Shown: positions 2,919 through 62,261 of the stretch, one piece after another
How positions within the stretch are numbered: position 1 is the stretch's first letter
How the letters are laid out: the number at the start of each line of letters is the position of its first letter
Assembly: GCA_964560525.1 (NCBI GenBank)
Contig: CAZLLO010000003.1
Span: forward strand, 9,585-73,584
DNA length: 64,000 bases
Direction of reading: 5' to 3'
Origin: an uncultured Candidatus Saccharibacteria bacterium
GTDB taxonomy: Bacteria > Patescibacteriota > Dojkabacteria > SC72
Program-made: the position numbers and the translations under genes
Notes under the pieces: generated by a model
Database searches by the model: none
The model's input: only the letters and a program-made list of their open reading frames with translations
Told to the model about the DNA's origin: nothing

Positions 2919-3533
2919 ATGGACAAGAAGGCTTTAAACACAGAAGAATATGTAAAACTGGTAAAAGAATCTCCAGAGAGGAAGAAGGGATATATTTTTG
3001 CAGGAATCACTTTGGCAGTATCTATCCTGCTCATCGTTTTCGCTGTTAGGCCAACGCTTTTGACTATCTCAAATATAAATGCGGAAATAAAGGAGGAAAC
3101 AAGGTTAGATACTCTGCTAGATGCAAAGATAGAGACATTAAGCAAACTGGATAAACAATATACAGAGATGGAAGCGAATTTGAGCCATCTCAGACTAATC
3201 TATCCAGATAACAAGGATTTTAGTCTCTTTATGGCGAATTCAACAGGAATGTTGTCCAAGAATGGTTTTACATTAACAGGTATTAGCTTTGATAACTATG
3301 GTGAGGATAATTTCGATCTGGTTACAAAGGTTTTAGTTCCATGGTCTGTGAGGTTAAATGTAAAAGGTAAGCCATCTAATTTGGTTAACCTTTTGAAAGA
3401 TCTTGAAGCATTGCCTATGTATCCAGTTATTGAGTCACTTTCCTATTCTAGTCAGAAGGATGAAAATGGTTTGACTAGTTACAGTATAAACTTGAGGATA
3501 TATGAAATAGAGAATAATAATTTTTATGATTAA
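2919..3533 (+). CDS. PilO-like type IV pilus assembly membrane protein
   Basis: N-terminal TM (YIFAGITLAVSILLIVFAV), a coiled-coil, and a C-terminal domain. Its start follows directly on the PilN-like stop. Confidence 0.5.
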   Translation: MDKKALNTEEYVKLVKESPERKKGYIFAGITLAVSILLIVFAVRPTLLTISNINAEIKEETRLDTLLDAKIETLSKLDKQYTEMEANLSHLRLIYPDNKDFSLFMANSTGMLSKNGFTLTGISFDNYGEDNFDLVTKVLVPWSVRLNVKGKPSNLVNLLKDLEALPMYPVIESLSYSSQKDENGLTSYSINLRIYEIENNNFYD

Positions 3534-17210: not shown

Positions 17211-17313
17211 TTTCAAGTATATAATAAAGTAAATTTGAGATTTTTACAAAGTACATATATACCATACAATACAGAAGGTTTTAAGGGAATAGTGAAAAGA
17301 GTGTTAAAAACCT

Positions 17314-33798: not shown

Positions 33799-33827
33799 AT
33801 TAGTCACATAATTTGCACCAGAATAGT

Positions 33828-40786: not shown

Positions 40787-41260
40787 TTAAAAAAACTTGC
40801 CCAAAGGATACACAATATGTAGCCAATTATCTTTTAACCATTTATCTGCCAATTTTTGAGAATCCAGTAATCCTCTTTTGGCTAATTCCTTATTTATGAC
40901 ATTTCCTTGATGAGGCTTATCGAACTGTTTTTCTAAGGGCGAACTAAACCCATGTGCATAATGACATAGCTCATGTGCAATAGTTGCACTAACAACAAAT
41001 TCTGGAATAATTTCGTTTTGGAAATACTTTGTTATAGTAATTACTGTAATTCGTTTATCATCTTGAGCCTCATAATCATCCTGGTTCTTTCTTAACAAAC
41101 TTTTTATCTTTGTATATTCATTAGCTAGTTTAATACTACCTAATTGGCGCTTAGAGTATTTCCCGAACTTGATAAGAACAAGGTTTTTTCTTGGAATATC
41201 GGAGAAGTATTCTTCCCATAAATCATACATTAAATTTTCTAAATATTTTCTATCTCTCAT
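40787..41260 (-). CDS. DUF45/YgjP (SprT-like) HExxH zinc metallohydrolase
   Basis: KRQLGSIKLA...VVSATIAHELCHYAHGFSSP matches the YgjP pattern RWGSC..I.LN...YVVVHELAHL.H.NHS. Confidence 0.65.
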   Translation of the reverse strand: MRDRKYLENLMYDLWEEYFSDIPRKNLVLIKFGKYSKRQLGSIKLANEYTKIKSLLRKNQDDYEAQDDKRITVITITKYFQNEIIPEFVVSATIAHELCHYAHGFSSPLEKQFDKPHQGNVINKELAKRGLLDSQKLADKWLKDNWLHIVYPLGKFF

Positions 41261-41274
41261 GCTATTATATTAGG

Positions 41275-43080
41275 ATGATTTTACAGAAATACAAGAAAAA
41301 ACTCATTACTTTATGGAATGTTCTCAAGTTCATATATGGTAGGTATACTTTTACTGCTGTTACAAGAGATATACTTTTTGTTGTAGCTACAGCATCTGAA
41401 GTATACAGCATCACAATTGTTGGTAAATTCATTGATGAAGTAGCAAAGATACTTTTAGATTGGAATCAGTTTGATCTCTCACAGTTTTTTCAAACACAGG
41501 CTTTCTTACACTTGGTAACAATTTTCGTGCTTTGGTCAATTTTGCAGGCATGTAATCAAGCTAAGCAACATCTTTACACCGTAATATATGAAAAGGTTTG
41601 GGAAGATGCAAGATATATGATGATTGCAAAGGTATCAAAATCCAATCTTCAGGATGTTGAACAAGAGAAATTCCAAGATTTACTTACATATGCACCTGCG
41701 TATTCGATAGACAAAATAATACAAACATATAACAGCTTCTCTGGAATTGTTAGTAGCATTGTCCGTTTGGTAAGTGCAGCCATAATTATATTTGGAATTA
41801 TGAGTTGGTCTGTATTCTTACTCATACTCTTTGTGCTTCCAGAAATAATAATTGTACACATCAGAAGAAAGCAGATTCGTAATTACCAAGATGAGGAGGT
41901 TGGAAGACTCAAATACCTTAACTATCTAACCAATCTTACACTTACGATAGCCAATTTCCCAGAATTAAGAGTCAATGATACATATGCATATACCAAACGA
42001 AAATATGATGAACAGTATGATGAATTCTTAGAAGGATATTTAAAGAAAGATGGGGATATGTACCGAGATAGAACAGTAAGCTCAATCATAGATCAGGGGC
42101 TGAAGTTTGCATATATTGTATATGTTCTCTCCTTTTCAATTGTAAAGAAGTTAAGTTTGGGTACTTTTAAGGCTTTGTATGATTATGTGGATATGGCGTA
42201 TGGCAGTATTTACAGTGTGTTGGATTCCCTTTCATTCATATCAACCTTGCTGGGGTATGATGAAGGTTTCTTTGACCTTATGGATTTCGAAGGATATGGG
42301 GATCATATGCATGGGGAATTAAAGTTAAAGAAAGGAACCCCTATGATTGAGCTTAAAAATCTTAGCTTCTCATATCCAGATGATCCAAAGACAATGGTTT
42401 TGAAGCATGTTGATATTGAAATTAAACCTGGAGAGAAAGTTGCTTTCTTTGGAAGTGATGGCTCGGGGAAGAGTAGTATGGTCAAAATCTTAACTGGCCT
42501 GTATCAAATCCAATCAGGAGAGTATCTAGTTGATGGTTGCTCTGTAAAGGAATTAGGACGCGGAGAACTTAAGAAGAAGATAGCTGTTACTTTCCAAGAT
42601 TTCATCAATTACAACTTTAGTGTTAAGGAGAATGTTGTTATATCTGGAGAAAGGAAGAATATCGACAAGAAATTGTACAATGAGGTTTCAAAAGTAAGCT
42701 TAGTTACAGATTTTCTAAAGAAAGAGAAAATAGAGGATGAACACGTATTAGGCAAAACCTTCCCAGGTGGAAAGGATCTTTCTCCAGGATATTGGCAGAG
42801 GTTGGCAATTGCAAGAATGTTGTACAGGAATAAAAAGATATTTGTTATGGATGAATCTTTTACATTCATAGATTCAGAATCAAAAGAATCCATATTGCAT
42901 AATATTTTCAATTTCCTTGGAACAGAAAAAACATTGATATATATCACAAGAAGTGTAGAAGACTTGGATCTGTTTGATAGAATATATTTCTTTGAAAATG
43001 GTAAGGTTATTGAATCTGGAAACTTTAAGGAATTGATGAAGAAGCGAAAGAAATTCTTTAAGATTGCTAATGAAAAATAG
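41275..43080 (+). CDS. ABC exporter with fused permease and ATPase
   Basis: Six N-terminal TM segments; Walker A GSDGSGKSS; a signature-like LSPGYWQRLAIAR; Walker B IFVMDES. The start is moved to the ATG at 41275 to avoid overlapping the upstream gene. Confidence 0.85.
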   Translation: MILQKYKKKLITLWNVLKFIYGRYTFTAVTRDILFVVATASEVYSITIVGKFIDEVAKILLDWNQFDLSQFFQTQAFLHLVTIFVLWSILQACNQAKQHLYTVIYEKVWEDARYMMIAKVSKSNLQDVEQEKFQDLLTYAPAYSIDKIIQTYNSFSGIVSSIVRLVSAAIIIFGIMSWSVFLLILFVLPEIIIVHIRRKQIRNYQDEEVGRLKYLNYLTNLTLTIANFPELRVNDTYAYTKRKYDEQYDEFLEGYLKKDGDMYRDRTVSSIIDQGLKFAYIVYVLSFSIVKKLSLGTFKALYDYVDMAYGSIYSVLDSLSFISTLLGYDEGFFDLMDFEGYGDHMHGELKLKKGTPMIELKNLSFSYPDDPKTMVLKHVDIEIKPGEKVAFFGSDGSGKSSMVKILTGLYQIQSGEYLVDGCSVKELGRGELKKKIAVTFQDFINYNFSVKENVVISGERKNIDKKLYNEVSKVSLVTDFLKKEKIEDEHVLGKTFPGGKDLSPGYWQRLAIARMLYRNKKIFVMDESFTFIDSESKESILHNIFNFLGTEKTLIYITRSVEDLDLFDRIYFFENGKVIESGNFKELMKKRKKFFKIANEK

Positions 43081-45792: not shown

Positions 45793-47073
45793 ATGTCTAA
45801 CAACATTAGGGATCAATTCCCAATACTAAAAACTAAGATAAATGGTAATCCAATTGTATATTTGGATAATGCCGCTACTACCCAGAAACCTCAGTTTGTA
45901 TTAGATTCCATCAATGATTACTACACTAAGTATAATGCAAATATTCATAGAAGTTCTCATGTCTTAGCTAAAGAAGCTACAGAGAGATGGAAGAATGCAC
46001 ACCAAATAGTTGCAGATTTCTTGAATGCTGATAACTACAAAGAGATTGTGTTTACGAGAAATACTACTGAAGGATTGAATCTTCTAGTTAATACATATGG
46101 AAAAGCAAATCTTTCCAAAGGAGATATTGTCATAGTTTCAGAGATGGAACATCACAGTAATATTGTTCCATGGATGATTTTGCAAAAAGAGATTGGTTTT
46201 GAAATTAAATATATTCCTGTAAACGAGAATTTCGATCTAGATTTGAATTGGTTAGAAGAGGAAATTAATAGGGACGGAAATAGAATTAAGATTGTTTCTG
46301 TGGTACATATCTCAAATGTACTTGGAACATTAAATCCTGTTAAAGAAATTGCAGAATTATCTCATAGGGTAGGGGCCTTTATGATTGTTGATGCAGCTCA
46401 AAGTGTTCAGCATGTTAAGGTTGATGTTAAGGATATAGATTGTGATGCATTAGTATTTTCAAGTCATAAGATATATGGACCAACTGGTAATGGAGTTTTG
46501 TATTGTAAGGAAAATATCTTAGAGAAATTACCTCCATATATGGGTGGTGGTGAGATGATATTAAGTGTTTCTAAAGATGGTTTTGAAATGAATGATTTGC
46601 CATGGAGATTTGAGGCAGGTACGCCCGATATTGAAAGCGGGATTGTGTTCGGAGAAACTTTGAAATGGTTTACAAAGACTGTAAATGAAATGGGAGGATT
46701 TGAGAAACTTGTAGAGCATGAAAGAGGTCTAATGAGAGAACTTCTAGATTCTTTCGATGGGGTAGAGTGGTTTAAACCTTTTGGAAAGATAGACTACAAT
46801 AACCGATATGGAGTTTTAACATTTAATATAGAGGGCTTTAGTTTTAAAGGATGTAAGGAAAAACGTCAGGAAAATCAGGAGGGTGATGGTATTGTTGAAT
46901 ATATTAGTAAAAAAGGAGTATGTGTAAGAGAAGGCTTCCATTGTGCAGAACCACTTCATGACAGATTCCATATTGGTCCCACAATGAGGGTAAGTTTTGG
47001 GATATACAACAACATAGAGGATGTCAAAAAATTCTCAAACTATCTCAAAGAAGCACTTCTAAGTTCATATTAG
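45793..47073 (+). CDS. sufS: Cysteine desulfurase (class V aminotransferase, SufS/CsdA-like)
   Basis: YLDNAATTQKP, the SSHKIYGPTG PLP-lysine region, and a C-terminal conserved Cys region. Confidence 0.85.
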   Translation: MSNNIRDQFPILKTKINGNPIVYLDNAATTQKPQFVLDSINDYYTKYNANIHRSSHVLAKEATERWKNAHQIVADFLNADNYKEIVFTRNTTEGLNLLVNTYGKANLSKGDIVIVSEMEHHSNIVPWMILQKEIGFEIKYIPVNENFDLDLNWLEEEINRDGNRIKIVSVVHISNVLGTLNPVKEIAELSHRVGAFMIVDAAQSVQHVKVDVKDIDCDALVFSSHKIYGPTGNGVLYCKENILEKLPPYMGGGEMILSVSKDGFEMNDLPWRFEAGTPDIESGIVFGETLKWFTKTVNEMGGFEKLVEHERGLMRELLDSFDGVEWFKPFGKIDYNNRYGVLTFNIEGFSFKGCKEKRQENQEGDGIVEYISKKGVCVREGFHCAEPLHDRFHIGPTMRVSFGIYNNIEDVKKFSNYLKEALLSSY

Positions 47074-48278
47074 AATGCTACTGGTGGTACAGAGCTTGGA
47101 GCAGTAGGAGTAGGATTATTTTCAATTGTAGGTGCTGTTGGAGTAGTCATTACACTTGGTGCTGACTCTGGTGCCTGTGAAGCTTGTAAATTTACGAATT
47201 GTTGCAAGTCTGGGAGTGGAGTACTTGGAATCTCTTGAGCAGGTTGGCTATCAAAAGTTGTTGGTAACTCTGTAACATTAGTAGGTGCTATGAAAGATTG
47301 CTCAGGTACCTGTACTGGCGTTGGTGATTGTACTGTAGGATCTTGCTCTGTTGGCACTGTTGTAGATTCACTATGTGATTCTTGTTGCATTATTGCCTGT
47401 AGATCAGATGATTGATTTTGTTCTGGTACTTTAACTTCTGTAGGAACAAATGTTGGTTGCTCTTGCATGAAAGGTGTTTCCTCTGTTGTTGGAGCAGTAT
47501 TACCTATTACATCTTGAATAGGAGTATTTGCGGGTGCTGGAGAATAGAGATTATTAGAAAGATTCTCCATATTTACAGGAGTAGTTTGAGGTATTTCACT
47601 CTCAGGTTGCACAGGAGTTACCTCTGGTTTAACCTCAGGAATACTTTCTACAGGTGTTTCTTTATCGCTATTTTTCTTCTTACTGAGAAGAATGCCAACA
47701 ATACTGATTAATAATATAACAGCACCACCTATTAGAACGTATGGCAAGTAATCCATAATCTTGTCTTTAAATGTTTCAGTAGTAGTTGTTGTTGTAGTTT
47801 TTGTTGTGGTTGTATTCTCTGTCTTTTGTTGTGTGGCTGTAACTGTATCTGTGTTATCTACATTAGTTACTGTTCCAACGGTTAAATCTCCTAAATCCAA
47901 TGTGGAATTCTCAAGTATTGTAAATTTGTATGCAGTTCCAGTACTTGTGAATGTTATATTTGCAATATTTCCTGTTACAGCCGTAGCTGTTTCCATTGTA
48001 CAGGTAACAGTTACGACATTATTTTGATTAGTAGAAGAAAACGTCCCACAGGAAGTGGATGTTCCTTGTTCTACTTTTGTGATAGTTACATCACTTGAAG
48101 CTTGTATAGCGATAGTGAAACCAGTTAGTGTATCTGTGTTTGATTCAACACCCAAAGCTACCTGTTTAAGAGTTGTGGTAGAAGTATCCTTTACTGCAAG
48201 ATCTACAGCTGCGAATATTTTTGTTGGAAGAAGTATGAGTAAAAATACAGGTAGAACCAAAAGAAGCAGTTTTTTCAT
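47070..48278 (-). CDS. Secreted/membrane protein: signal peptide, beta-rich Thr/Val-rich domain (cohesin-like guess), poly-Thr linker, single TM, then a Pro/Thr/Gln/Glu-rich tail
   Basis: MKKLLLLVLPVFLLILLPTKIFA signal peptide; TTTTKTTTTTTTET; TM YLPYVLIGGAVILLISIVGILL followed by KKKNSDKE (positive-inside); about 200 aa of low-complexity PTQE-rich tail. Confidence 0.6.
   Translation of the reverse strand: MKKLLLLVLPVFLLILLPTKIFAAVDLAVKDTSTTTLKQVALGVESNTDTLTGFTIAIQASSDVTITKVEQGTSTSCGTFSSTNQNNVVTVTCTMETATAVTGNIANITFTSTGTAYKFTILENSTLDLGDLTVGTVTNVDNTDTVTATQQKTENTTTTKTTTTTTTETFKDKIMDYLPYVLIGGAVILLISIVGILLSKKKNSDKETPVESIPEVKPEVTPVQPESEIPQTTPVNMENLSNNLYSPAPANTPIQDVIGNTAPTTEETPFMQEQPTFVPTEVKVPEQNQSSDLQAIMQQESHSESTTVPTEQDPTVQSPTPVQVPEQSFIAPTNVTELPTTFDSQPAQEIPSTPLPDLQQFVNLQASQAPESAPSVMTTPTAPTIENNPTPTAPSSVPPVAF
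47779..47813. repeat. Imperfect trinucleotide tract (AGT/TGT/GGT on the + strand) encoding the poly-Thr linker
   Basis: The tract agtagttgttgttgtagtttttgttgtggttgt read directly in the sequence. Confidence 0.5.
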
Positions 48279-48380
48279 CAAAATGGCAGTTTAATTTTAT
48301 ACTTATTAAGGCTATCATGGCAAAAGAAGAAAGTCAAAAAGAATTATTTGACTTAATGGCTTTGTACAGATACACTTTTA

Positions 48381-49592
48381 ATGAATATATTACTGCCTAA
48401 TATGGATTACACAAATACAGGTTTACTACAAAATAATAATGGAGTAGGGGAGAATTCTCTTTCAGAGGTGATGGCTTTGAGAAACAAACTGATGGAGTCT
48501 AGGGTTCCAATTGATTTAAAAAACAGTGCTTTAAAAGGTGTAGAGAGAGTAGAGCGAGCTGCAAAAAATGGAACATATAGCTCAGAATTTGAAAATGTTA
48601 GTAAATATATCGAATGGATAACATCTATTCCGTGGGGAATAATTTCTCAAGATAATCTTGATATTAAGCATGCCAAAGAGTTAATGGATTCCACACACTA
48701 TGGTATGGATTCTATTAAAAATATGATCCTGGACTATCTAGCTTCGATGCAATTAGAGATGAGGCAGAATTTACCCACATATGGGAATATGCCTTCTCAA
48801 ATACAAGGTAATTTAGCTGAAAGAATGCCTGTGAATGCTCCTGTGGTTAAGAATGCAAGTTCGAAAGCGCCAGTATTTCTTTTTGTTGGTTTACAGGGTG
48901 TTGGAAAAACCACTATTGCTAAATCTATCGCTGACTCTATGGGTAGGAAATTCGCCAGAATTTCCTTAGGTGCAATAGGAGATGTGCGTACTTTAAGAGG
49001 TACTCCTAGGCATTCTATAGATGCTGAACCAGGTCAAGTTATCAAAGCTTTGGTTCGAGGTGGAACAATGAATCCAGTTATTCTATTAGATGAGATTGAG
49101 AAAGCCAGTGGTAATGCGGGATTATTAAATGATGTAATGGCTGCATTATTAGAGATTCTGGATCCTGAGCAAAATACAACTTTTATAGATCACTATGTGG
49201 ATTATCCTGTGGATCTATCAAAGGTTTTCTTTATATGTACTGCTAACAATTTGGGTGGTCTATCTGCTGCTTTGCTAGATCGTGTTGAGGTTATTCGTTT
49301 TACCAGTTATTCTGACGAGGAGAAGTTCGTTATAGCTAGGAAGTATATATTACCCAAGGTTCTTAAGGATTTGAATATATCTGAAGAATACATTCGCATA
49401 GATGATAGTGTATGGCCATTAATTATCCGTCCAGTAGGATTTGATGCGGGCATTAGGCAGTTAGAGAGAAATATCGCTTCCATAATTAGAACAGGTGCAC
49501 GTAAGATAGTTGAGGGGGCTCAACTTCCAATAGTGATCTCTACTGAGAATATAAACCAATATTTACCTCAGGATCAGGGACCTCTGAGTTAA
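48381..49592 (+). CDS. Stand-alone Lon-type AAA+ ATPase core, with no Lon N-terminal domain and no S16 protease domain
   Basis: Collinear with the E. coli Lon AAA+ region as I recall it: KYIEWITSIPW, HYGMDSIKNMILDYLAS, Walker A GLQGVGKTT, Walker B NPVILLDEIEKA, LEILDPEQNTTFIDHY, sensor FICTAN, LLDRVEVIRFTSYSDEEK, FDAGIRQLERNI. The ORF ends where the protease domain would begin. Confidence 0.8.
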   Translation: MNILLPNMDYTNTGLLQNNNGVGENSLSEVMALRNKLMESRVPIDLKNSALKGVERVERAAKNGTYSSEFENVSKYIEWITSIPWGIISQDNLDIKHAKELMDSTHYGMDSIKNMILDYLASMQLEMRQNLPTYGNMPSQIQGNLAERMPVNAPVVKNASSKAPVFLFVGLQGVGKTTIAKSIADSMGRKFARISLGAIGDVRTLRGTPRHSIDAEPGQVIKALVRGGTMNPVILLDEIEKASGNAGLLNDVMAALLEILDPEQNTTFIDHYVDYPVDLSKVFFICTANNLGGLSAALLDRVEVIRFTSYSDEEKFVIARKYILPKVLKDLNISEEYIRIDDSVWPLIIRPVGFDAGIRQLERNIASIIRTGARKIVEGAQLPIVISTENINQYLPQDQGPLS

Positions 49593-49855
49593 TACCCTTT
49601 AAAAGGATTTGCAAGTCGAAGTGCGGACATTGCCCTAGAGATTTGAGGATCTTTTTTCCCTTTTGATATATCTGCACGATATGAAATTTTTTTCTCTGCC
49701 TTAGTAATTTCGTCAAGGTCTGAAAGCACTTTAGTTTGCGGTATTTCGGAGGTGGTAACGGCTTGTGTTACTAGGTAGTTCTGTTCGTTAAGTAGATTTA
49801 AATTTTGTTGGTTATTGTTTTGTTCCATCATTATTAGGTATATAGCTAGGCACAT
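49589..49855 (-). CDS. Hypothetical small Gln/Asn-rich protein (about 80-88 aa), last gene of the T4SS-like operon
   Basis: ORF overlapping the 3' end of the VirB4-like gene; the start could be the ATG at 49855 or the one at 49828. No TM and no motif. Confidence 0.35.
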   Translation of the reverse strand: MCLAIYLIMMEQNNNQQNLNLLNEQNYLVTQAVTTSEIPQTKVLSDLDEITKAEKKISYRADISKGKKDPQISRAMSALRLANPFKGY

Positions 49856-52244
49856 TCCCTTGTGGAGTTGTGTGCTCTCTACCTTTTTGAATATCCTCCC
49901 TTGATTGTACCACTTGTCCTGATACAGTGTTTTGTTTTATGGTATCTAAGAAAGATTGTTGGCTTTTGAATTTGTCAGGGTTTAGTTCTAGCTCTTGTTG
50001 TCTAAGTCTTTCTTCTAATTCCTTTTGATATTGTGATCTCTCATCTTCGATAAGCTCTTGGTCGGATTTTCTTTTCTGTATTGCCTGATCTATCACATGT
50101 TGTTGTCTTTCCAAACTTTTCCCATCTCTCATAGGTTGTTGTTCTGCAGGTGGTTCATATATCTGTGCTAAATCCTCAAGTGTACGTGTATCTGTTGCTC
50201 CAGCATTTGCTCTTTGTGCTTCGAGTTCCTTTGGATCTGTGGTAATTAATTCATGTTCTGCCTGACTTGATATGATTTGGATGCCGACATGGTTAGCTCC
50301 TGCAAAGAAAAGACCTTGTCCTCGGTCACAACTTAACAAGAAATTCTTTTCTCCGTCAGATAGATTGAAAACTGTTTGGAGTTTATCTACAGAAGAGGGA
50401 CTTTGTTTCATCAATATTTGCATAGAAGAGTTAGATATGATGGCTTTTCCCATATCATTGCTTAGGAAGTCAGATACATCCTGTGTTATTGTGGAGAGGC
50501 CAAGATAGTATTTTCTTGCTCTTTTTGCAATTGAATACATGAAGTTTGCAGAATCAAGGCTTTGCATCATATACCAAGCTTCATCAACGATTAGTAATCT
50601 TCTCTTTTGATCTTTTCTAATCTTAGTCCATATGAAATCGAGCATTAGATACATTGATAGAGGCTTGAGCTCATCTTGTAAATCTCTAATACTAAATACT
50701 GTAAAAGGATTGTTAATTTCGAAATTACTTGCTTCATTGAATATACCTGCGGCACTGCCGATGATATATTTTTCCATTCTTCTTGCTAAATCATGAGCTT
50801 CATTCTCGGCCATTCCCTTTAGTACCTTATACATATCTTCAAGTAGTGGAGGCTGTTTGGTTTGAGTTGAAGGATCAAATGTAATACCTTTCTCACGATA
50901 GGTGAGTATTAATGCTTTATCCAACAGGGACTCTTCAACATTACTTAGTCCTCCGAAAAGAATTTTAAAGAAACCGTGTAGAGATAGTAATTTCATTCTC
51001 AATTCATCATCTCCTTCTTCTGTGATCCCTGATAGCTCAAATGGATTCATCTTGTTTCCTTTGTCCTGGGAGAATGAAATGTAAGAACCGTTTACTGCAT
51101 TTGAGAGGGCTTGGTATTCTTTCTCAGGGTCAATGATTATAATTTCGGTACCAAGCATCAGACTTCTAAGTACTTCTAATTTCACAAAGTAGCTTTTACC
51201 TGCACCAGCTTTTGCAAATACTACAGTATTTGCATTTTCTAATTGGAATCTATCAAAGATAACCAAGCTCTTGTTATGCATATTTATTCCGTACATGATT
51301 CCATGGTCCATTGTTAGTTCGGAAGTTACAAATGGGAATGTAGTTGCAAGAGAAGTGGTATCCATATTTCTGGTTATGAAGAGTGGATCTAGGCCAAGAG
51401 GTTGTGTACTTATAAATCCTTGTGCTTGTTGCAGTGTAGCTGGTTTGGCTACTACGCTCATTGCTGCGAGGGTAGAGGTTACATTTCTAGAATATTTTTC
51501 TAAGAGGTTTTTGTTTGGTGCATATATTGTTATATACATTCCAAAGTGAAAATATTTTTCAGATCCTTCTGCAATGGAATCTTGAAGTTGTTGTGCATCT
51601 GAAAGCGCAACCTTAAGAGTAGGGTCTACAACTTTTCTATCTTCCATTTGAGAGTAGAGAGTTGCTTCCATTTCACCAATCTTTCTCTTAAGTTTTTCCA
51701 GTATCTCCTTTGTTTCTACAGGGTAGTAAAAGGTACTAATTCTTAAAGAATGTTCAAAGTTGACGATAGGGGAAAGCCAGTTTGGGCCTACAACACGAGG
51801 ATATCCACTAATGAAGAATGTCTTAAAATAGTAGTCTCCCATTTGAAGATGATTGAAGTCTATTTCCATATCTATTGGGGCAACTATATCCTTGATAGCC
51901 ATCTTCTCGTCTATCAGGGTTAGATCCTCATCTACTTCTGATGCAGGCTTAATTTCCTCACCTCCAGCTTTCTTTTTATTTACTACAGAAGATATCTTAT
52001 CTAGTAGCTTTAATAGGGGATTCTTTGATTTAGGTTTTTTCTCTTCGGAGTTTTCTTCAACGAGAGGATCTACGACTCTATTTGCTTCTGGTCTTTCTCT
52101 GGCAGTGGAAACTTCTTTTTGTAAGTCTTGTCTAAAAGTCTGATACTTTTCTCCCGCAGTTTGGAGTTTCTCTTCCTGGCTATGTAACTGCTCCATGGTC
52201 TTGCTCTCTATTACTGGATTTTCGTTTAGATTGTTATTTTCCAT
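49812..52244 (-). CDS. VirB4/TrbE/CagE-family type IV secretion ATPase (core) with low-complexity N- and C-terminal extensions
   Basis: Walker A FAKAGAGKSYFV; diagnostic VirB4/TraC Walker B LLIVDEAWYMM followed by RKYYLGLSTITQ; N-terminal YFKTFFISGYPRVVGPNWLSP, a VirB4 family signature. Own ATG with a strong GAGGAGG Shine-Dalgarno. Confidence 0.85.
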   Translation of the reverse strand: MENNNLNENPVIESKTMEQLHSQEEKLQTAGEKYQTFRQDLQKEVSTARERPEANRVVDPLVEENSEEKKPKSKNPLLKLLDKISSVVNKKKAGGEEIKPASEVDEDLTLIDEKMAIKDIVAPIDMEIDFNHLQMGDYYFKTFFISGYPRVVGPNWLSPIVNFEHSLRISTFYYPVETKEILEKLKRKIGEMEATLYSQMEDRKVVDPTLKVALSDAQQLQDSIAEGSEKYFHFGMYITIYAPNKNLLEKYSRNVTSTLAAMSVVAKPATLQQAQGFISTQPLGLDPLFITRNMDTTSLATTFPFVTSELTMDHGIMYGINMHNKSLVIFDRFQLENANTVVFAKAGAGKSYFVKLEVLRSLMLGTEIIIIDPEKEYQALSNAVNGSYISFSQDKGNKMNPFELSGITEEGDDELRMKLLSLHGFFKILFGGLSNVEESLLDKALILTYREKGITFDPSTQTKQPPLLEDMYKVLKGMAENEAHDLARRMEKYIIGSAAGIFNEASNFEINNPFTVFSIRDLQDELKPLSMYLMLDFIWTKIRKDQKRRLLIVDEAWYMMQSLDSANFMYSIAKRARKYYLGLSTITQDVSDFLSNDMGKAIISNSSMQILMKQSPSSVDKLQTVFNLSDGEKNFLLSCDRGQGLFFAGANHVGIQIISSQAEHELITTDPKELEAQRANAGATDTRTLEDLAQIYEPPAEQQPMRDGKSLERQQHVIDQAIQKRKSDQELIEDERSQYQKELEERLRQQELELNPDKFKSQQSFLDTIKQNTVSGQVVQSREDIQKGREHTTPQGNVPSYIPNNDGTKQ

Positions 52245-52884
52245 CTTCTTCTTCCTCCTCTGGGTTATATATGGTATAGAATTCTGAAAGTAATTCAGTA
52301 TTATTTAATTGATGCCCGAACAATCCCATACGTGAGAGCTGTTTAAGAATATGATCTCTTTTGGGGTACAAGAAGATCTTTCCCTTCTCGAGTAGTTGGT
52401 CTATCTGCATTTGTTTGTATTGTTCTTCCTCTTCTTTGTTTCTTTTCGACTTAAGAATATTACCAGTTGGTATGGAAATCCCAGGACTGTATGGAACTAC
52501 TATGAAGAAATTCTTGTCTAAAACATCGTTTTGAATAATTAAATTCTGTACGAATTTGGTATATATCTCTAACTGTTTGCGTAAACCCTCTGTCATTTCT
52601 CGTTTCTTTTGAGATTCAAGATAGTCTACGTAATTCGCAATATCAATTCTCTTTGTTCTAATGAGTATTTGAATCCTGAAATTTAGTGAATTCAAAAGTC
52701 CTGCGAAAGAAAATATCTTGCTATCTTGCTCATATTCTGCGAGAAGGTCAAAGTTAATTGCGGAAGTTCGTATCACCATCGCCACACTACCGCTATTAGT
52801 GATGATTAAATCGTCTCTGATCTCTTTCAGTTGCAATTGGTCTTGTGTTGAAGCTATTGCTCTAGCTCTTGCGTTTTTGTCCAC
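52234..52884 (-). CDS. Separately encoded homolog of the VirB4 N-terminal domain (216 aa, soluble, acidic C-terminal tail)
   Basis: DDLIITNSGSVAMVIRTSAINFDLLAEYEQDSKIFSFAGLLNSLNFRIQILIRTKR aligns with the N-terminal region of A. tumefaciens VirB4 as I remember it (DHIVLLEDGSIMSIARIDGVAFELEEIEMRNARCRAFNTLLRNI...). GTG start 2 nt after the upstream stop. Overlaps the VirB4 core gene by 11 bp in a different frame. Confidence 0.55.
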   Translation of the reverse strand: MDKNARARAIASTQDQLQLKEIRDDLIITNSGSVAMVIRTSAINFDLLAEYEQDSKIFSFAGLLNSLNFRIQILIRTKRIDIANYVDYLESQKKREMTEGLRKQLEIYTKFVQNLIIQNDVLDKNFFIVVPYSPGISIPTGNILKSKRNKEEEEQYKQMQIDQLLEKGKIFLYPKRDHILKQLSRMGLFGHQLNNTELLSEFYTIYNPEEEEEDGK

Positions 52885-52886
52885 TT

Positions 52887-53687
52887 TTAAATTGTCTTAA
52901 TTTTAATAGGTAATTTATGATCTGTTTCCTGAATGATTATTTGTACTTTAGGAAATTTAAACTGTGGGTGTTGGAACTCTAGGTAATATACACCTTTCTC
53001 CCAAATCCTGTTAGTCAAGAAATATCCACTTTGGCCAGTTCTATTCGCATACAATACTTTTCCGTCTTGTCCTTTCATGTAAGTTACTACATTTGGAACA
53101 GGTTTCATATCTTGAGTGTATAGCCAGACATTAATATTTCCAGGTAATTTCTCCAAACTCTGTATGCTAAATTCATAATTAGCTCGATTCTCATCTGATA
53201 TTACTAGTGCTTGAGGGGTTGATGGTATAGTATCTGGTTTTGTAGGTACTGTTTGCTCGGGTATCACTGCTATCTTCTTTTGAATCCCGCCGCCAATAAT
53301 TGTGCTTGTATTTTCTTTGAAACTCTTCTCTACTAATTTCCCCTCTGTACTAGGTTTAACTTCTGGTTTTACTCTTTCTTCTTTCATTTGGCTATTTAGC
53401 CAAACCATTTGTGTCGGAGCACTAATCGCATTGACATAGTTCTTTATGAAGACATCAGCGTCTTGGTCATTAACTGGAACTATTCCCAGGAATATTCCTG
53501 CACCACCAGTTACTATTGCAATTGGAATTCCTACTAATGCAGGGATAGTACCTCCTACTACTAGATACACCATGATTCCAGCTAACCCAAGTCCAACCGC
53601 AAGATATGCAAATTCTTTGAGTGTGAACTTAGTAAAGAGTTTGAACTCTACGTCTAATATATTTTGTGGTATAGGGTGTTGTCTCAT
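52887..53687 (-). CDS. PrgI/VirB3-like T4SS membrane protein with an extracytoplasmic C-terminal extension of about 170 aa (PEGA/CarbopepD-reg-like beta-sandwich)
   Basis: NILDVEFKLFTKFTLKEFAYLAVG followed by two TM helices, then GIVPVNDQDADVFIKNY, matching the Tn916 Orf17/PrgI pattern. C-terminal KGVYYLEFQHPQFKF beta-rich domain. Confidence 0.6.
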   Translation of the reverse strand: MRQHPIPQNILDVEFKLFTKFTLKEFAYLAVGLGLAGIMVYLVVGGTIPALVGIPIAIVTGGAGIFLGIVPVNDQDADVFIKNYVNAISAPTQMVWLNSQMKEERVKPEVKPSTEGKLVEKSFKENTSTIIGGGIQKKIAVIPEQTVPTKPDTIPSTPQALVISDENRANYEFSIQSLEKLPGNINVWLYTQDMKPVPNVVTYMKGQDGKVLYANRTGQSGYFLTNRIWEKGVYYLEFQHPQFKFPKVQIIIQETDHKLPIKIKTI

Positions 53688-53762: not shown

Positions 53763-54533
53763 ATGTATACACCACTAAAAGCCTTTGAGGAATTATCAAA
53801 ATTTAGATTGTTGATGAATTGTTCTGTATCTGAGGAGAAGGCAAAGTATATCTGGGGGAAGAATTTCACAAAGAATTTAGACAAGAAGTTGGGAAATGAA
53901 AGAGTAGGGGATGTGGTTCTTTCTAAGTTAGAAATTGCAAAAAAGAATCTAAAATATCTTAAGGTTGGTAACTGGGTTAAGTTTATTGGTATTTCTGGAT
54001 CTGTAGCTGCGGGGTTTGCAAAGCAAGAAGATGATATTGATGTTTTCGTGGTTGTAGAAAATGATACTGCATGGATATATAGAGCATTGTTGATGTTTAA
54101 GAATATATTTCATAGGAAGATACGTATAAAGAGGGATGGTGAGATGGTTATGGATAAGTTATGTATTAATTTCATATGTGAGGAAAAGGGGCTTCAATTA
54201 GAGAATGATATGTTTAATTTTCATGAGCTTATGTACTTAATTCCTATTTGCAATGAGAAATATCTTAACTACATCTATTCTAAAAACGTATGGTTAAAAG
54301 AGGAGTATGGGGTTAAGAATGAATTGTTGGTTAATAGGGTGTGGGTAGAGAGAAGAAGGAATATTTTTTTAATGATTTTAAACTTTAAGGCTTTTTGCTT
54401 ACAATTAATATTCATGATTATTACTAATCATGGTCCGGAGATACCTAGATTAAAGAGTAATTTTAAAGAAGGAAGGATAGAATTCTTTCCTGTGGATTAC
54501 AAGGAGAAAAGAATAGAAAAGTATTTAAATTAA
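53763..54533 (+). CDS. Pol-beta superfamily nucleotidyltransferase (256 aa) of unknown substrate
   Basis: GISGSVAAGFAKQEDDIDVFVVV, i.e. the hG[GS]-x10-DhDh NTase motif. Comparable in size to Lnu/ANT-type antibiotic NTases and AbiEii-like toxins. Low GC and purine-rich. Confidence 0.65.
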   Translation: MYTPLKAFEELSKFRLLMNCSVSEEKAKYIWGKNFTKNLDKKLGNERVGDVVLSKLEIAKKNLKYLKVGNWVKFIGISGSVAAGFAKQEDDIDVFVVVENDTAWIYRALLMFKNIFHRKIRIKRDGEMVMDKLCINFICEEKGLQLENDMFNFHELMYLIPICNEKYLNYIYSKNVWLKEEYGVKNELLVNRVWVERRRNIFLMILNFKAFCLQLIFMIITNHGPEIPRLKSNFKEGRIEFFPVDYKEKRIEKYLN

Positions 54534-54550
54534 TTTAGTAATAAAGAACA

Positions 54551-54874
54551 ATGATCGACTATATGAATAACTATATGGAATATATAAAAACCATATTAAA
54601 GAAAGAAAATATAAATGAATCTATTAAGAAAGATTTTCTTGAACATATACAATTTATGCAACATGAAAGACTAATACATCTATTAGTTACTATGTTATTT
54701 GCATCATTATTAATGTTTGGATTTATTATTATGCTTATATATTTCTCTTGGATATTGGTAGTATTTACAGCAATAATATTTATTGTAGAAATATTCTATA
54801 TATTCCATTATTACAAACTAGAGAATGGAATACAGAGGATGTATAGGTTGTATGATGAAGTAACTAAGAAATAG
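54551..54874 (+). CDS. Small 2-TM membrane protein (107 aa), co-transcribed with the NTase
   Basis: Lies 17 bp downstream of the NTase stop. Two hydrophobic helices (LIHLLVTMLFASLLMFGFIIMLIYF and ILVVFTAIIFIVEIFYIF). GC roughly 22%. Confidence 0.45.
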   Translation: MIDYMNNYMEYIKTILKKENINESIKKDFLEHIQFMQHERLIHLLVTMLFASLLMFGFIIMLIYFSWILVVFTAIIFIVEIFYIFHYYKLENGIQRMYRLYDEVTKK

Positions 54875-55358
54875 CCTTTATTGTATACACAATTTTTTCT
54901 TTAATCTCCTCGTATGAGGAAGAATCTTTAATGTCTAGTATGACTAACTTATGATCTTTTTCATCATCATATTTATTCTTCATATCAATACAATCCTTTA
55001 ATATCTCTTTCTTTTGTTCCAGAGGATCTATTTTTGAAAAATCTCCAATAGAACCGTTTTCTTTTCTCTTTTCGTAATTCTGTTTAAGAAGAGTATCTGA
55101 AGGATTTAGTATGAATATGAGAGATTTTTTATACAAAGATTTCAAAATATACCATTTTCGATATATCCAACAATGGTCAAATATAACAGTAGGGTAATAA
55201 AACGGATTCATATGATCTAATATATTAAAATAGTTTCCCTTAGTGGTTTCATTTATAAGGGGAATGTTAAGTTCTTTTGATATTTCTTCTGCAAGTGTAC
55301 TTTTACCTGCAGTTACTGGCCCTGAAATAATAATACCGATATTTCCTATTGCTTCCAT
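54864..55358 (-). CDS. Small P-loop NTPase / nucleoside(nucleotide)-kinase-like protein (164 aa)
   Basis: Walker A IIISGPVTAGKSTLAEEI. Convergent with the NTase-2TM operon and overlaps its end by 11 bp. Confidence 0.55.
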   Translation of the reverse strand: MEAIGNIGIIISGPVTAGKSTLAEEISKELNIPLINETTKGNYFNILDHMNPFYYPTVIFDHCWIYRKWYILKSLYKKSLIFILNPSDTLLKQNYEKRKENGSIGDFSKIDPLEQKKEILKDCIDMKNKYDDEKDHKLVILDIKDSSSYEEIKEKIVYTIKAIS

Positions 55359-55558
55359 ATACTTTATTATACCAGTATTTAAAAAAAAACAATTACTGTG
55401 TCTTTCAATATCCCCATTATTTAATAATATGATATAATCATTCCCATGAATAAAGCATATAACCTAAATCAGAAGTTCTGGCGACCCTCTAACAATTAAG
55501 AGGGTGTGATGCTTTATACATATATTTCCATAAAGATTTTTGTTTAAGTATCTACCAT

Positions 55559-55635
55559 GGGTGGATAGTTTGAATTGGTTAAAACGGTAGTCTCCAAAAC
55601 TACAGTTATGGGTTCAATTCCCATTCCACCTACCA
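55559..55635 (+). tRNA. trnW: tRNA-Trp (anticodon CCA), with the 3' CCA encoded
   Basis: Manual cloverleaf: acceptor GGGTGGA/TCCACCT with a G1-U72 wobble; D-stem GTTT/AAAC; anticodon stem GTAGT/ACTAC; anticodon loop CTCCAAA; T-arm ATGGG-TTCAATT-CCCAT; discriminator A, then CCA. Confidence 0.85.
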
Positions 55636-55663
55636 TTCTAACTAATATTTACTAAATTAAATT

Positions 55664-56191
55664 ATGGAAATCGAAATAATGGAAAACAATCAAAATGAAA
55701 TATCAATACTCGAGCAGGAAATCCCTGTAGGAGGAGTTTTTAAACCCATATCCAAGGTTATTGAAGAAAGAGTAGCTCAGGAAACAGAAGAAAGATTAAA
55801 TACTGAAAAATTCAAATCAAAGTATGAAGATCCTTCATCTCAATTCGCCCAATTGCAAGTTAATAGCTATATGAAGTTGATTAGACCAAGAGGAGAAGAG
55901 GAGTTTGTAAAACTCAAAGAAGTAGTTACTGAAGATGAATTAGACGACACAAAAGTTGTAGAAAATATTGATTACCCTAACTATCAATCTCTGCAAAATG
56001 GAGTAGGTGAAATCAATATAAAAAAAGAAGATCTTTCTACCATACGAGGAATATTTGCAAAGGCAAATATAAGATTAAATCAAAAGCTAAAAGCTTCTGT
56101 AACGAGTACAGACCTATATAATATGTTGTATTCAGAGCTCTCTGAGAAGAGAATGAGTGACTATCAATACTTAGTTTGGCAACTGTCTTAG
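55664..56191 (+). CDS. Hypothetical protein (175 aa), possibly the N-terminal part of a gene disrupted by a frameshift (see findings)
   Basis: ATG start immediately after the tRNA; acidic with no TM. The downstream ORF is open in the +1 frame from 56175 and overlaps this ORF's stop. Confidence 0.4.
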   Translation: MEIEIMENNQNEISILEQEIPVGGVFKPISKVIEERVAQETEERLNTEKFKSKYEDPSSQFAQLQVNSYMKLIRPRGEEEFVKLKEVVTEDELDDTKVVENIDYPNYQSLQNGVGEINIKKEDLSTIRGIFAKANIRLNQKLKASVTSTDLYNMLYSELSEKRMSDYQYLVWQLS

Positions 56192-60533: not shown

Positions 60534-61082
60534 TTAATAGTATTTATGTTCTGTTGGATATATCTTAGCAGTTTCTATTTCAAATGTCTTTATTGTGAAA
60601 AGCGATATTATCATTGCTAATGCTCCTGCTACGATTCCAACCCATGAGTAGGTATTACCTTGTAGTGTATGTGCAATGGTAACTCCTGATGCTAGCCACA
60701 TAAATGCGCACCAGATGAAAATTGTAAGAAAGGAGGTCTCTTTGCTAGTGATCCACTTTAAAATATTGAACTTTGTCATTTTAATAATTGTTCGTGGATT
60801 ACTTGCTACTGTATGGTAGAGGTAGGTTTTGAGTATAAAGGTGATCAATGGAATTGCGATTACTAAAACCATTACGAGGTTTGATATTGAGTTTACAAAA
60901 AGAGTAGTCTCTGGATTTGAATAGTATATCTGAATTGAGAAGATACCATTTAAATCGTTACTTATTTGGAAATTCAGATTGTATATTATGCTAGTACATA
61001 AAATACCTAAGAATTTACCCGCAATTATCAATATTGCAGGAACTATTGATATTTTAAGTGCTCTTTTTAGCAGCTTTGACAT
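60534..61082 (-). CDS. Hypothetical polytopic membrane protein (182 aa)
   Basis: 4 to 5 predicted TM segments. Overlaps the 3' end of rpsT by 29 bp, so the true start may be internal. Confidence 0.5.
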   Translation of the reverse strand: MSKLLKRALKISIVPAILIIAGKFLGILCTSIIYNLNFQISNDLNGIFSIQIYYSNPETTLFVNSISNLVMVLVIAIPLITFILKTYLYHTVASNPRTIIKMTKFNILKWITSKETSFLTIFIWCAFMWLASGVTIAHTLQGNTYSWVGIVAGALAMIISLFTIKTFEIETAKIYPTEHKYY

Positions 61083-61444: not shown

Positions 61445-61861
61445 ATGAGTGATAGGCGTAAGTTTGTAGGGATAACAATTTCAGCGATAGTTTTGATTGC
61501 TATTTTCGTAGGTACTTTAGTAATGTTAAATATTAGGAAAAGGAATATTGAGGCGCAATCTGTATTGGGAGAAATGGATATGTCGGTTGTTCCATATATT
61601 GTAAGCTTACCACCGCTTTCTGGTGTTGTAGGGGAAGAGTATGTTTATGATGTAAAATATTCGGATAGGGATAGCCAAAGCTCTGAGATATCAATAAAAT
61701 TAATAGATGCTCCTTCGTGGTTATCTGTTAATAGTATGACAGTATCAGGTATTCCGACTTCAGAGAATGGGGGACAAAATAAGTTTTCGGTTAGAATTTC
61801 TGATGGAAAGAATTCTTCTGTGCAGGAAAATTATATTTTAATACAAGACAATGTTGAATAA
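61445..61861 (+). CDS. Membrane-anchored protein with an Ig/cadherin-like extracytoplasmic domain
   Basis: N-terminal TM; LPPLSGVVGEEYVYDVKYSD...SVNSMTVSGIPT resembles putative Ig (dystroglycan-type cadherin-like) domains. Confidence 0.5.
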   Translation: MSDRRKFVGITISAIVLIAIFVGTLVMLNIRKRNIEAQSVLGEMDMSVVPYIVSLPPLSGVVGEEYVYDVKYSDRDSQSSEISIKLIDAPSWLSVNSMTVSGIPTSENGGQNKFSVRISDGKNSSVQENYILIQDNVE

Positions 61862-62261
61862 GAAGTATTTTATATTAACAGGTTTTATCGGGATTATTCT
61901 TGTAGGAATATCTTCAGGCTTGTTGTTTGTACGAAATACATTTGGTTCTGATATTTTTGCATCTTCAGAGAAGAATTGTATTCCATACAATGTGTTTGTT
62001 GAGAAGGGGAGTAGTGAGTATTCTGTACAGATTAGCTGGAATACAAGGAAAGAATGTTTGGGTTTTGTTCAGTATGGGAGTAATCGAGATGATTTGGATT
62101 TAGTAAGCGTGGATATGGAGAACAAAGCTAAATCTAAAGTACATACTGTTGTCATTGAAAAACTTCTTACAACACAGCGCTACTATTTTTTAATTAATTC
62201 GGAAGATAAGGCGTATGGATATAATGGATCAGCACTTGATTTCTCGCTTAAGAATCTTTAA
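61851..62261 (+). CDS. Membrane-anchored protein with a fibronectin-III-like domain
   Basis: N-terminal TM followed by a beta-rich domain (YSVQISWNTRKECLGFVQYG). Confidence 0.5.
   Translation: MLNKKYFILTGFIGIILVGISSGLLFVRNTFGSDIFASSEKNCIPYNVFVEKGSSEYSVQISWNTRKECLGFVQYGSNRDDLDLVSVDMENKAKSKVHTVVIEKLLTTQRYYFLINSEDKAYGYNGSALDFSLKNL

Follow-up and report, generated by a model that had tools for sequence, protein, structure and literature searches.

The type IV secretion systems (T4SS) of Patescibacteria, with Dojkabacteria genomes included, were described by Quinonero-Coronel et al. 2025 (PMC12102498). In the portions of that survey drawn on here, TrsD is the most abundant VirB4-associated component, with 2,272 homologues in Patescibacteria, of which 1,664 adjoin virB4. 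Genes for TrsD, PrgI, and VirB4 occur widely and side by side in these bacteria, relaxases are rare, and the genome list gives VirB4 as "Yes" for Dojkabacteria. Nearly all Patescibacteria VirB4 proteins form one clade inside MPF-FATA. VirB6 and VirB2-like genes occur in many classes, and the frequent failure to detect VirB6 is put down to divergence. In Southlakia epibionticum ML1 (Wang et al. 2023, as cited in PMC12102498 and PMC12857230), the T4SS genes are essential by Tn-seq.

A real four-gene type IV secretion operon is present on a Candidatus Dojkabacteria chromosome, within a 64,000-nucleotide stretch of DNA that was analysed as a whole (the window; positions count from its first letter). 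All four of its genes run in the same direction, on the minus strand, and encode a PrgI/VirB3-like protein, a TrsD-like protein, a VirB4 core ATPase, and a small protein. A first-pass annotation, made from the bare DNA letters, had proposed these identities, and the analysis bears them out; its ORF coordinates were confirmed for all four genes. The features of the operon are as follows.

52887..53687, minus strand: prgI/virB3-like gene, 266 aa, with PrgI domain, membrane hairpin, linker, and C-terminal beta-sandwich
53553-53615, minus strand: PrgI TM1, hydrophobic helix starting near residue 25
53478-53549, minus strand: PrgI TM2, hydrophobic helix starting near residue 47
53217-53411, minus strand: PrgI disordered linker, pLDDT below 50 in the AF2 model
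52890-53210, minus strand: PrgI transthyretin-like beta-sandwich, predicted from the AF2 model and Foldseek
52234..52884, minus strand: trsD-like gene, 216 aa, the VirB4 N-terminal subdomain as a separate polypeptide
52234..52260, minus strand: trsD/virB4 junction, read directly from the sequence
49812..52244, minus strand: virB4 core ATPase gene, 810 aa, identified by NCBIfam, Pfam, and PDB matches
51915-52244, minus strand: disordered N-terminal 110 aa of VirB4
51255-51914, minus strand: remainder of the VirB4 N-domain, carrying YPRVVGPNWL
51774-51803, minus strand: YPRVVGPNWL, residues 148-157 of the 810-aa protein
50208-51254, minus strand: VirB4 P-loop ATPase, carrying Walker A and Walker B
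51192-51206, minus strand: Walker A GAGKS, residues 347-351 of the 810-aa protein
50574-50585, minus strand: Walker B DEAW, residues 554-557 of the 810-aa protein
49815-50207, minus strand: charged C-terminal tail of VirB4
49589..49831, minus strand: small conserved gene, 80 aa; the ORF reaches 49855, the conserved start is 49831

Three traits identify the 266-aa protein as PrgI/VirB3-like: (i) the Pfam domain PrgI (PF12666), which covers residues 5-87 and scores 30.7 bits against a gathering score of 27, (ii) a two-helix membrane hairpin, and (iii) a nearby virB4, two positions downstream. Residues 160-266 are predicted to fold as a beta-sandwich (AF2, pLDDT about 90), for which Foldseek returns the transthyretin-like domain of carboxypeptidase D, transthyretin, and CnaB (E about 1e-4); a two-TM PrgI protein with a beta-sandwich extension is what had first been read here. 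The protein has 386 homologues of 262-289 aa, some of which NCBI calls "PrgI family protein". An apparent extra gene between the PrgI N-terminus and TrsD in four relatives (L075, L077, L078, and L080) was rejected, the gap being a longer disordered linker in PrgI proteins of 297-455 aa whose C-terminal domain is unchanged. As PrgI has two membrane helices, its beta-sandwich should face the side where the N-terminus is, presumably the cytoplasm. Transthyretin-like beta-sandwich folds are usually extracellular, and a cytoplasmic placing would be odd.

The 810-aa protein has the Walker A motif, the DEAW-type Walker B motif, and the above-threshold family score of a VirB4/TraC/CagE ATPase, and the GAGKS, DEAW, and YP..GP.WL motifs noticed at first pass were all located. 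NCBIfam conju_CD1110 matches with 378 bits against a cut-off of 325, over model positions 181-734 of 752 only, and the best family model is of MPF-FATA type. Pfam returns P-loop_TraG (101.7 bits, 4.6e-29) as well as AAA_10 and CagE_TrbE_VirB, and PDB 4ag5, a VirB4 C-terminal domain, matches at E 1.9e-47. A complete N-terminal domain is absent from this polypeptide; mapping on P0256, an unsplit Patescibacteria VirB4, places the missing part in the upstream 216-aa gene. Residues 111-679 of the core are 57% identical to residues 203-772 of P0256, and the 216-aa and 810-aa proteins are collinear with it, with 3 residues separating the two matches. P0256 is itself a real gene, seen on 3 contigs as part of a PrgI-VirB4-M23 peptidase cluster. 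Jointly, the 216-aa and 810-aa proteins amount to one complete VirB4.

The trsD-like gene starts with GTG, 2 nt past the prgI stop, and has the position typical of the TrsD family, a VirB4 N-terminus homologue directly upstream of a shortened virB4. That its product follows the VirB4 N-terminal domain, as first proposed, is supported by the collinear mapping on P0256 and by NCBIfam models that do match, if weakly: VirB4_plasma over model positions 102-233 (E 6.6e-7, weak but specific) and TrsD/TraD (25.7 bits against a curated cut-off of 200, E 8.4e-6). The TrsD model is matched at E below 1e-3 by 73 of 76 family members. A database protein identical to the 216-aa protein carries a precomputed match to Pfam PF26593, "TraC-like", a family for which a literature search returned no papers. 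A PDB sequence search with the 216-aa protein gave nothing meaningful, and fold comparison alone succeeded. Standalone homologues of 210-219 aa number 625 among the closest relatives, and the TrsD-like domain is carried, always N-terminally, by 1,578 representatives at 50% clustering. Median identity across related loci is 71% for TrsD and 70% for VirB4, compared with 65% for the neighbouring Lon-like ATPase and 57% for SufS; since TrsD is as conserved as the ATPase, the separate N-terminal piece appears to be functionally important.

The fourth gene, initially described as a Q/N-rich miniprotein of 88 aa, is a real conserved gene, but its product most likely has 80 aa and starts at 49831, because the gene call on the source contig is precisely this 80-aa protein (P0391) and the alignment of 50 orthologues begins at the same methionine. 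The gene shares 20 nt with the 3′ end of virB4 and encodes a hydrophilic protein with an N/Q-rich N-terminus and an invariant C-terminal ...AL(R/Q)L.NPF(K/R)G(Y/V). In 58 of 72 loci, virB4 is followed directly by an orthologue of the small gene. The search yielded only 26 homologues, those few with names being Dojkabacteria/WS6, and none of the 26 has a Pfam domain. The 80-aa protein and the PrgI beta-sandwich count as class-specific accessories and may act as an adaptor or a substrate.

No T4CP, relaxase, VirB6, VirB1, or VirB2 family was matched by window ORFs of at least 90 aa, and no TrbC/VirB2, VirB6, or T4SS pilin match was found near virB4; these searches used Pfam and NCBIfam, whereas the survey in PMC12102498 used CONJScan profiles. 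Neither the window nor the syntenic 10-kb flanks of relatives yielded VirB6, VirB8, a VirB2-like pilin, VirB1, or T4CP, in line with the original statement that the 64 kb holds no VirD4, VirB6-like protein, VirB1-type hydrolase, or relaxase. The sole FtsK-family protein of the window (14976-17216) shows the domains of a chromosomal FtsK, namely 4TM, alpha, and gamma. Candidates for VirB6 were rejected at 8906-10117 (MraY-type GT4), 33813-35618 (MurJ), 30730-33027 (13 TM helices and TPR repeats, no T4SS match), and 60534-61082 (4 TM helices, no match), as was a gene of roughly 2 kb that L066 and L069-L073 have between the small and the Lon-like gene and that encodes an ABC exporter with permease and ATPase. 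This exporter, found in deep-branching relatives, is paralogous in type to that at 41191-43080 of the window. Further T4SS components could have escaped the HMMs through divergence or be encoded at other sites in the genome.

The operon very probably encodes an inner-membrane energising module. By analogy with described systems, this module is most likely the energising core of a non-conjugative T4SS serving an epibiotic lifestyle, a role extrapolated from a different class, Saccharimonadia. If VirB3 and the VirB4 N-domain act as they do in the diderm T4SS whose structures are solved, the ATPase would be tethered to the membrane by the PrgI/VirB3-like hairpin, the TrsD-like protein would provide the extreme N-terminal subdomain of VirB4 in trans and bridge PrgI and the VirB4 core, and the core would form a hexameric ATPase driving assembly and/or substrate passage. 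The Tn-seq results in Southlakia epibionticum suggest that such a machine would be non-conjugative and used in the host-dependent epibiotic lifestyle, possibly, for example, in assembling a pilus or channel for exchange with the host cell; its remaining parts would be encoded elsewhere or too divergent to recognise.

An unlikely alternative is that the module imports DNA or RNA, like archaeal Ced, or drives some structure outside the T4SS, for instance a type IV pilus, the T4SS channel parts having been lost. The VirB4 core does weakly resemble CedB (NCBIfam, E 1e-13), but at a score far below those of the conjugative VirB4 families. The import of nucleic acids would also suit Patescibacteria, which are unable to make nucleotides and of which one cultivated member reportedly feeds on host RNA and has tubular interface structures. 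The window offers no recognisable channel or pilin genes nearby, as this alternative would have it; however, such gaps in VirB6 detection are common and attributed to divergence in the survey, where VirB6 and VirB2-like genes occur in many classes and the nesting of nearly all Patescibacteria VirB4 in one MPF-FATA clade also speaks for a T4SS (PMC12102498). Also unlikely is that the Patescibacteria T4SS has been cut down in Dojkabacteria to a self-contained four-gene module, with no VirB6, VirB2, VirB8, or T4CP anywhere in the genome, in which the VirB4 motor would work with non-T4SS partners or in a new minimal architecture and the 80-aa NPF(K/R)G-tailed protein would be a dedicated adaptor or substrate.

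The chromosomal setting bears on whether the energising core of a non-conjugative T4SS could instead be part of a mobile element. The 80 closest loci are all from Dojkabacteria/WS6, and gene order is the same in every one of the 72 related loci with all three genes. The same neighbours recur across the class, namely a nucleotidyltransferase gene, a convergent Lon-like AAA gene (kept in 63 of the 72), and SufS. The operon is flanked by housekeeping genes, GC content is uniform around it, and only four intergenic gaps in the 64-kb window reach 120 nt. In a promoter and terminator scan, promoter-like sites were scarcer than in shuffles, and the operon strand showed no terminator. The operon has been passed down vertically at one fixed position in the chromosome. 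That it is instead a remnant or part of an ICE or plasmid, with relaxase and coupling protein outside the window, is highly improbable and is rejected on the synteny and the housekeeping flanks, even though the top-scoring family models are conjugation ATPases (the CD1110 family and the Mbov_0397 ICE family) and the nearest non-Patescibacteria relatives sit on Bacillota and Actinomycetota plasmids; no linked relaxase, T4CP, integrase/replication module, or repeats were found in the 64 kb, and of 3,035 Patescibacteria genomes only 103 carry a relaxase (PMC12102498). The earlier reading that this is no ordinary ICE stands.

At the trsD/virB4 junction, the trsD stop TAA (52234-52236) produces an 11-nt overlap with virB4 in a different frame, and the virB4 ATG (52244) is preceded by GAGGAGG at a distance of 9 nt. 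Across 77 related loci the junction spans -53 to +8 nt, and the virB4 frame relative to trsD is +1 in 41, +2 in 34, and the same in 2. That the two pieces are a single gene interrupted by a frameshift from sequencing or assembly, or a recent pseudogene, has a negligible probability and is ruled out by this geometry: although the overlap falls in an A/G-rich run, GAGGAGGAAGAAGAAGATGG, of the kind prone to indel errors, two ORFs are kept in all three relative frames at 77 independent loci, the 216-aa protein has its hundreds of standalone homologues, the core starts at an ATG of its own behind a Shine-Dalgarno motif and carries an N-terminal extension of 110 aa missing from the unsplit form, and both halves are highly conserved. 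The split is genuine, as first proposed, and it is ancient and conserved. The accompanying claim that a split VirB4 would be unusual fails, since a separate VirB4 N-terminal piece is known as the TrsD family and Bacillota plasmids split VirB4 likewise; the two-gene VirB4 is the usual, previously published arrangement in these ultrasmall bacteria and no oddity.

Among known systems, the R388 TrwM-TrwK VirB3-VirB4 complex (PDB 7o42 and related entries) is diderm, with an outer-membrane core, stalk, and arches (VirB5 to VirB10) that are neither expected nor found in the Dojkabacteria operon. TrsD-TrsE of Staphylococcus pGO1/pSK41 (TraD-TraE of pIP501; MPF-FATA subclass; NCBIfam NF041427) share with it a soluble VirB4-N-terminus homologue of roughly 200 aa encoded just upstream of a shortened VirB4, but these systems are conjugative, with relaxase, T4CP, and VirB1, VirB6, and VirB8 analogues, and the similarity of their TrsD to the 216-aa protein is remote, as its score far below the curated cut-off indicates. 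Bacillota megaplasmid clusters, such as that of Pontibacillus sp. NZ_CP062975, also encode a split VirB4 (WP_207531476 and WP_207531477), preceded by a small protein. There, a 274-aa hypothetical protein, 27% identical to the 216-aa protein over 95% of the query (E 1e-15), is encoded by a gene that overlaps that of a 621-aa CD1110-family VirB4 by 11 nt; the cluster differs in its adjacent pilin-like conjugal transfer protein, 779-aa protein, and large M23 peptidase. The unsplit P0256 (787 aa), 37% identical to the TrsD-like protein in addition to its match to the core, is likewise preceded by a PrgI protein (273 aa), but it is a single polypeptide that has neither the disordered insert of 110 aa nor the C-terminal tail of 130 aa, and it adjoins an M23 peptidase and dnaN/dnaA.

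The closest counterparts are the Patescibacteria-clade T4SS themselves (PMC12102498), in which chromosomal PrgI/VirB3-like, TrsD-like, and monoderm (MPF-FATA) type VirB4 genes are adjacent and no relaxase or T4CP is nearby; all of this holds for the Dojkabacteria operon, and the link first drawn to the non-conjugative T4SS of Saccharibacteria is supported. PrgI-adjacent TrsD and VirB4 on a chromosome without relaxase is the standard, already published Patescibacteria T4SS, and a divergent module of this type proved correctly recognisable from sequence alone. The Dojkabacteria version is unusually compact and strictly syntenic. It differs in having no VirB2-like pilin array, VirB6, or peptidase (VirB1 analogue) beside virB4, VirB6 and VirB2-like genes being frequent but not universal there in the clade, in lying away from dnaA/dnaN, and in its PrgI with a tethered transthyretin-like domain and the class-specific 80-aa gene after virB4. 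The parts of PMC12102498 consulted contain no description of these Dojkabacteria-specific details, and the PrgI-tethered beta-sandwich and the class-specific 80-aa protein may be new, if minor. Both are concrete candidates for lineage-specific accessory factors.

The operon consists of four minus-strand genes, all found where the first-pass annotation had placed them:

52887-53687, minus strand: PrgI, 266 aa, with two hydrophobic helices
52234-52884, minus strand: TrsD-like protein, N-terminal piece of VirB4, 216 aa
49812-52244, minus strand: VirB4 core ATPase, 810 aa
49589-49831, minus strand: small protein, 80 aa

The first three assignments agree with family models. PrgI is recognized by Pfam at residues 5-87 (30.7 bits vs a gathering score of 27). 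The VirB4 core exceeds the curated NCBIfam cut-off for CD1110, a family of VirB4-like ATPases in conjugal transfer (378 vs 325 bits), covering the model only at positions 181-734 of 752. Among solved structures it matches the C-terminal domain of VirB4 (4ag5, E 1.9e-47), and it carries the expected motifs GAGKS (residues 347-351), DEAW (554-557), and YPRVVGPNWL (148-157). The 216-aa protein matches the N-terminal portion of VirB4_plasma, an NCBIfam model of full-length VirB4 (positions 102-233, E 6.6e-7), and TrsD/TraD (E 8.4e-6) but nothing in the Pfam copy searched locally; the identical database entry carries the precomputed Pfam domain PF26593 ("TraC-like"). Its gene overlaps virB4 by 11 nt, and the strong Shine-Dalgarno sequence proposed for the latter, GAGGAGG, lies 9 nt 5′ of the ATG. 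The fourth gene is present, with a product of 80 aa and not 88: the annotation of the source contig contains exactly this 80-aa protein, and the alignment of 50 orthologues begins at its start methionine.

The 216-aa protein is the part of VirB4 that the core lacks. Among 1.84 billion representatives, searched exhaustively, it has 1,578 relatives, and in the best 150 the domain is N-terminal in nearly all full-length proteins (~200-790 aa). One relative, P0256 (787 aa), is an unsplit Patescibacteria VirB4 of CD1110 type, complete in one chain (model positions 3-735). Its gene is real and is carried by three contigs, within a cluster of PrgI, VirB4, and M23 peptidase genes adjoining dnaN/dnaA. 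Residues 11-207 of the TrsD-like protein align with P0256 residues 8-199 (37% identity, E 1e-42) and residues 111-679 of the core with residues 203-772 (57% identity), so that the two matches are collinear, non-overlapping, and three residues apart. In addition, 75 of 76 diverse relatives match VirB4_plasma and 73 match TrsD. On the basis of this collinearity and these family-model matches, the 216- and 810-aa proteins together constitute one VirB4.

The split is genuine, as first proposed. The closest relatives of the TrsD-like protein are standalone, nearly all of 210-219 aa (best 120 of 625 above threshold), and trsD and virB4 are separate ORFs in 77 related loci. The frame of virB4 relative to trsD is +1 in 41 of these, +2 in 34, and the same in 2, and the spacing between the two genes (trsD stop to virB4 ATG) varies from -53 to +8 nt. 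A sequencing frameshift cannot yield such a pattern and is ruled out. Two gained segments distinguish the Dojkabacteria core from the unsplit form: a disordered, charged one of ~110 aa at the N-terminus and a C-terminal tail of ~130 aa.

All 72 loci holding the three genes keep them collinear, on a single strand and in the order prgI-trsD-virB4, with the small gene directly 3′ of virB4 in 58 and a convergent Lon-like AAA+ gene in 63. Most loci also have a divergent nucleotidyltransferase gene upstream of the operon and SufS downstream of the Lon-like gene. Median amino-acid identities to the window proteins are 71% for the TrsD-like protein, 70% for VirB4, 65% for the Lon-like protein, 57% for SufS, 48% for PrgI, and 47% for the small protein. 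At the sequence level, this synteny and these identities identify the operon as a chromosomal module, vertically inherited and strongly constrained, and rule out a mobile element or its relic.

The Lon-like gene (48381-49592, plus strand) overlaps the last operon gene by 4 nt. Its 403-aa product resembles Lon in the ATPase and lid only (TIGR00763 positions 245-568 of 795) and seems to lack the protease domain. In the deep-branching Dojkabacteria loci L066 and L069-L073, an ABC exporter of ~600 aa lies between the small gene and the Lon-like gene (at about 12.6-14.5 kb; 2.3-4.1 kb in L073); window 41191-43080 encodes a protein of the same type.

All close homologues belong to the Patescibacteria/CPR class Candidatus Dojkabacteria (candidate division WS6); "Saccharibacteria" is a wrong label on some records. 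The window is gene-dense (~35% GC, only four intergenic gaps of at least 120 nt) and encodes the following housekeeping functions:

MetRS, sigma-70, DnaG, chromosomal FtsK
ribosomal protein S12
HrcA, GrpE, DnaK, GroEL
MurJ, FolD, SHMT, dCTP deaminase, SufS
RecF-like SMC-family ATPase, LepA, ribosomal protein S20

A family scan covered window ORFs of at least 90 aa other than 17459-20845 and 20829-24716, two large ORFs directly upstream of the S12 gene. It gave no match for a relaxase, VirB6, VirB1, or VirD4/TcpA coupling protein, in line with the first-pass annotation, nor for VirB8 or VirB2. The four genes form a conserved chromosomal operon that is not linked to genes for conjugation. GC content dips to 0.29 at 54001-56000, beside tRNA-Trp (55559-55635), a region that may be a small variable islet adjoining the operon. 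It includes ORFs 54551-54874 (plus) and 54864-55358 (minus), encoding a two-helix membrane protein of 107 aa, found in the closest relatives only (L001, L003, L005, L007), and a small P-loop kinase-like protein.

Two operon products carry accessory features. The PrgI model comprises a membrane hairpin, a disordered linker (residues 93-157, pLDDT <50), and a confident β-sandwich (residues 160-266, pLDDT ~90). Foldseek relates the latter to transthyretin-like, carboxypeptidase-regulatory, and CnaB-type domains (E ~1e-4), in agreement with a weak Pfam EMC7 β-sandwich match. Given two membrane helices, the modeled β-sandwich should lie on the same side of the membrane as the N-terminus. PrgI of deep-branching Dojkabacteria (297-455 aa) has the same terminal domain behind a much longer Q/P/T/S-rich linker. 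The search with the 80-aa protein yielded only 26 homologues, none with a known domain; the few with an organism name are from Dojkabacteria/WS6. Conserved motifs of the protein are (N/D)YLVT and DL..L.KAE, and its C-terminal end, AL(R/Q)L.NPF(K/R)G(Y/V), is invariant.

Other window genes encode membrane-anchored or secreted proteins. The 403-aa product of 47070-48281 (minus) has a signal peptide and a ~150-aa domain; a membrane helix lies near residue 174, and the long tail is rich in P/T/Q. Its membrane-helix region matches NCBIfam T7SS EssA very weakly (E 0.0035), and it is poorly conserved (matches over >60% of its span in 15 loci, 27-38% identity), at a constant position. Adjacent plus-strand genes at 2361-2918 and 2919-3533 encode proteins of 185 and 204 aa, each with a single membrane helix at the N-terminus, ahead of a coiled-coil and an α/β region; on visual inspection they resemble pilus assembly proteins of the PilN/PilO type, with no Pfam match at E <0.001. 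The 565-aa product of 62262-63959 (minus), a cysteine-bearing surface protein anchored in the membrane at its C-terminus, matches no family. This protein and two small secreted proteins with Ig-like or FN3-like domains (He_PIG, Pur_ac_phosph_N; 61445-61861 and 61851-62261, plus) are possibly cell-surface or adhesion proteins.

In the established T4SS architecture, VirB3 and VirB4 form an inner-membrane complex. By extension, PrgI would anchor the VirB4 ATPase to the membrane, TrsD would supply the extreme N-terminal subdomain in trans and bridge PrgI to the hexameric core, and the core would drive assembly and/or transport. By analogy only, the operon may have a role in host-dependent growth. 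It is improbable that the four genes make up the entire VirB4 module of Dojkabacteria and work in the absence of canonical channel components. The first-pass interpretation is largely right, except that the split is not novel and that "minimal" applies only to the 64-kb window and the 10-kb flanks of relatives.

The TrsD family takes its definition from staphylococcal plasmid pGO1, and the same VirB4 split occurs in Bacillota plasmids. Like the window pair, Pontibacillus NZ_CP062975 encodes a 274-aa "hypothetical protein" and a 621-aa CD1110 VirB4 with an 11-nt overlap, in a cluster that also encodes a pilin-like protein and an M23 peptidase. Very large M23 or DD-metalloendopeptidases, presumed VirB1 analogues, are encoded directly 3′ of virB4 in the unsplit-VirB4 Patescibacterium locus L081 (9846-12518, 890 aa) and the Pontibacillus plasmid locus L083 (11680-14832, ~1,050 aa), whereas no such large peptidase gene follows virB4 in Dojkabacteria. 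A survey of 3,035 Patescibacteria genomes, with Dojkabacteria among those scored VirB4-positive, places the VirB4 of Patescibacteria as a clade nested in MPF-FATA (Quinonero-Coronel et al. 2025, PMC12102498). In that survey, PrgI/VirB3 homologues adjoin virB4 in most cases, T4CP genes are seldom close to it, and relaxases occur in only 103 genomes. Epibiotic growth of Southlakia epibionticum requires TrsD, PrgI, and VirB6 homologues (as cited in PMC12102498). Because TrsD, PrgI, and VirB4 homologues are thus already surveyed in Patescibacteria and Bacillota plasmids carry the same split, the split VirB4 is neither unusual, as had been claimed, nor new, and the Dojkabacteria T4SS is a system already described in the literature.
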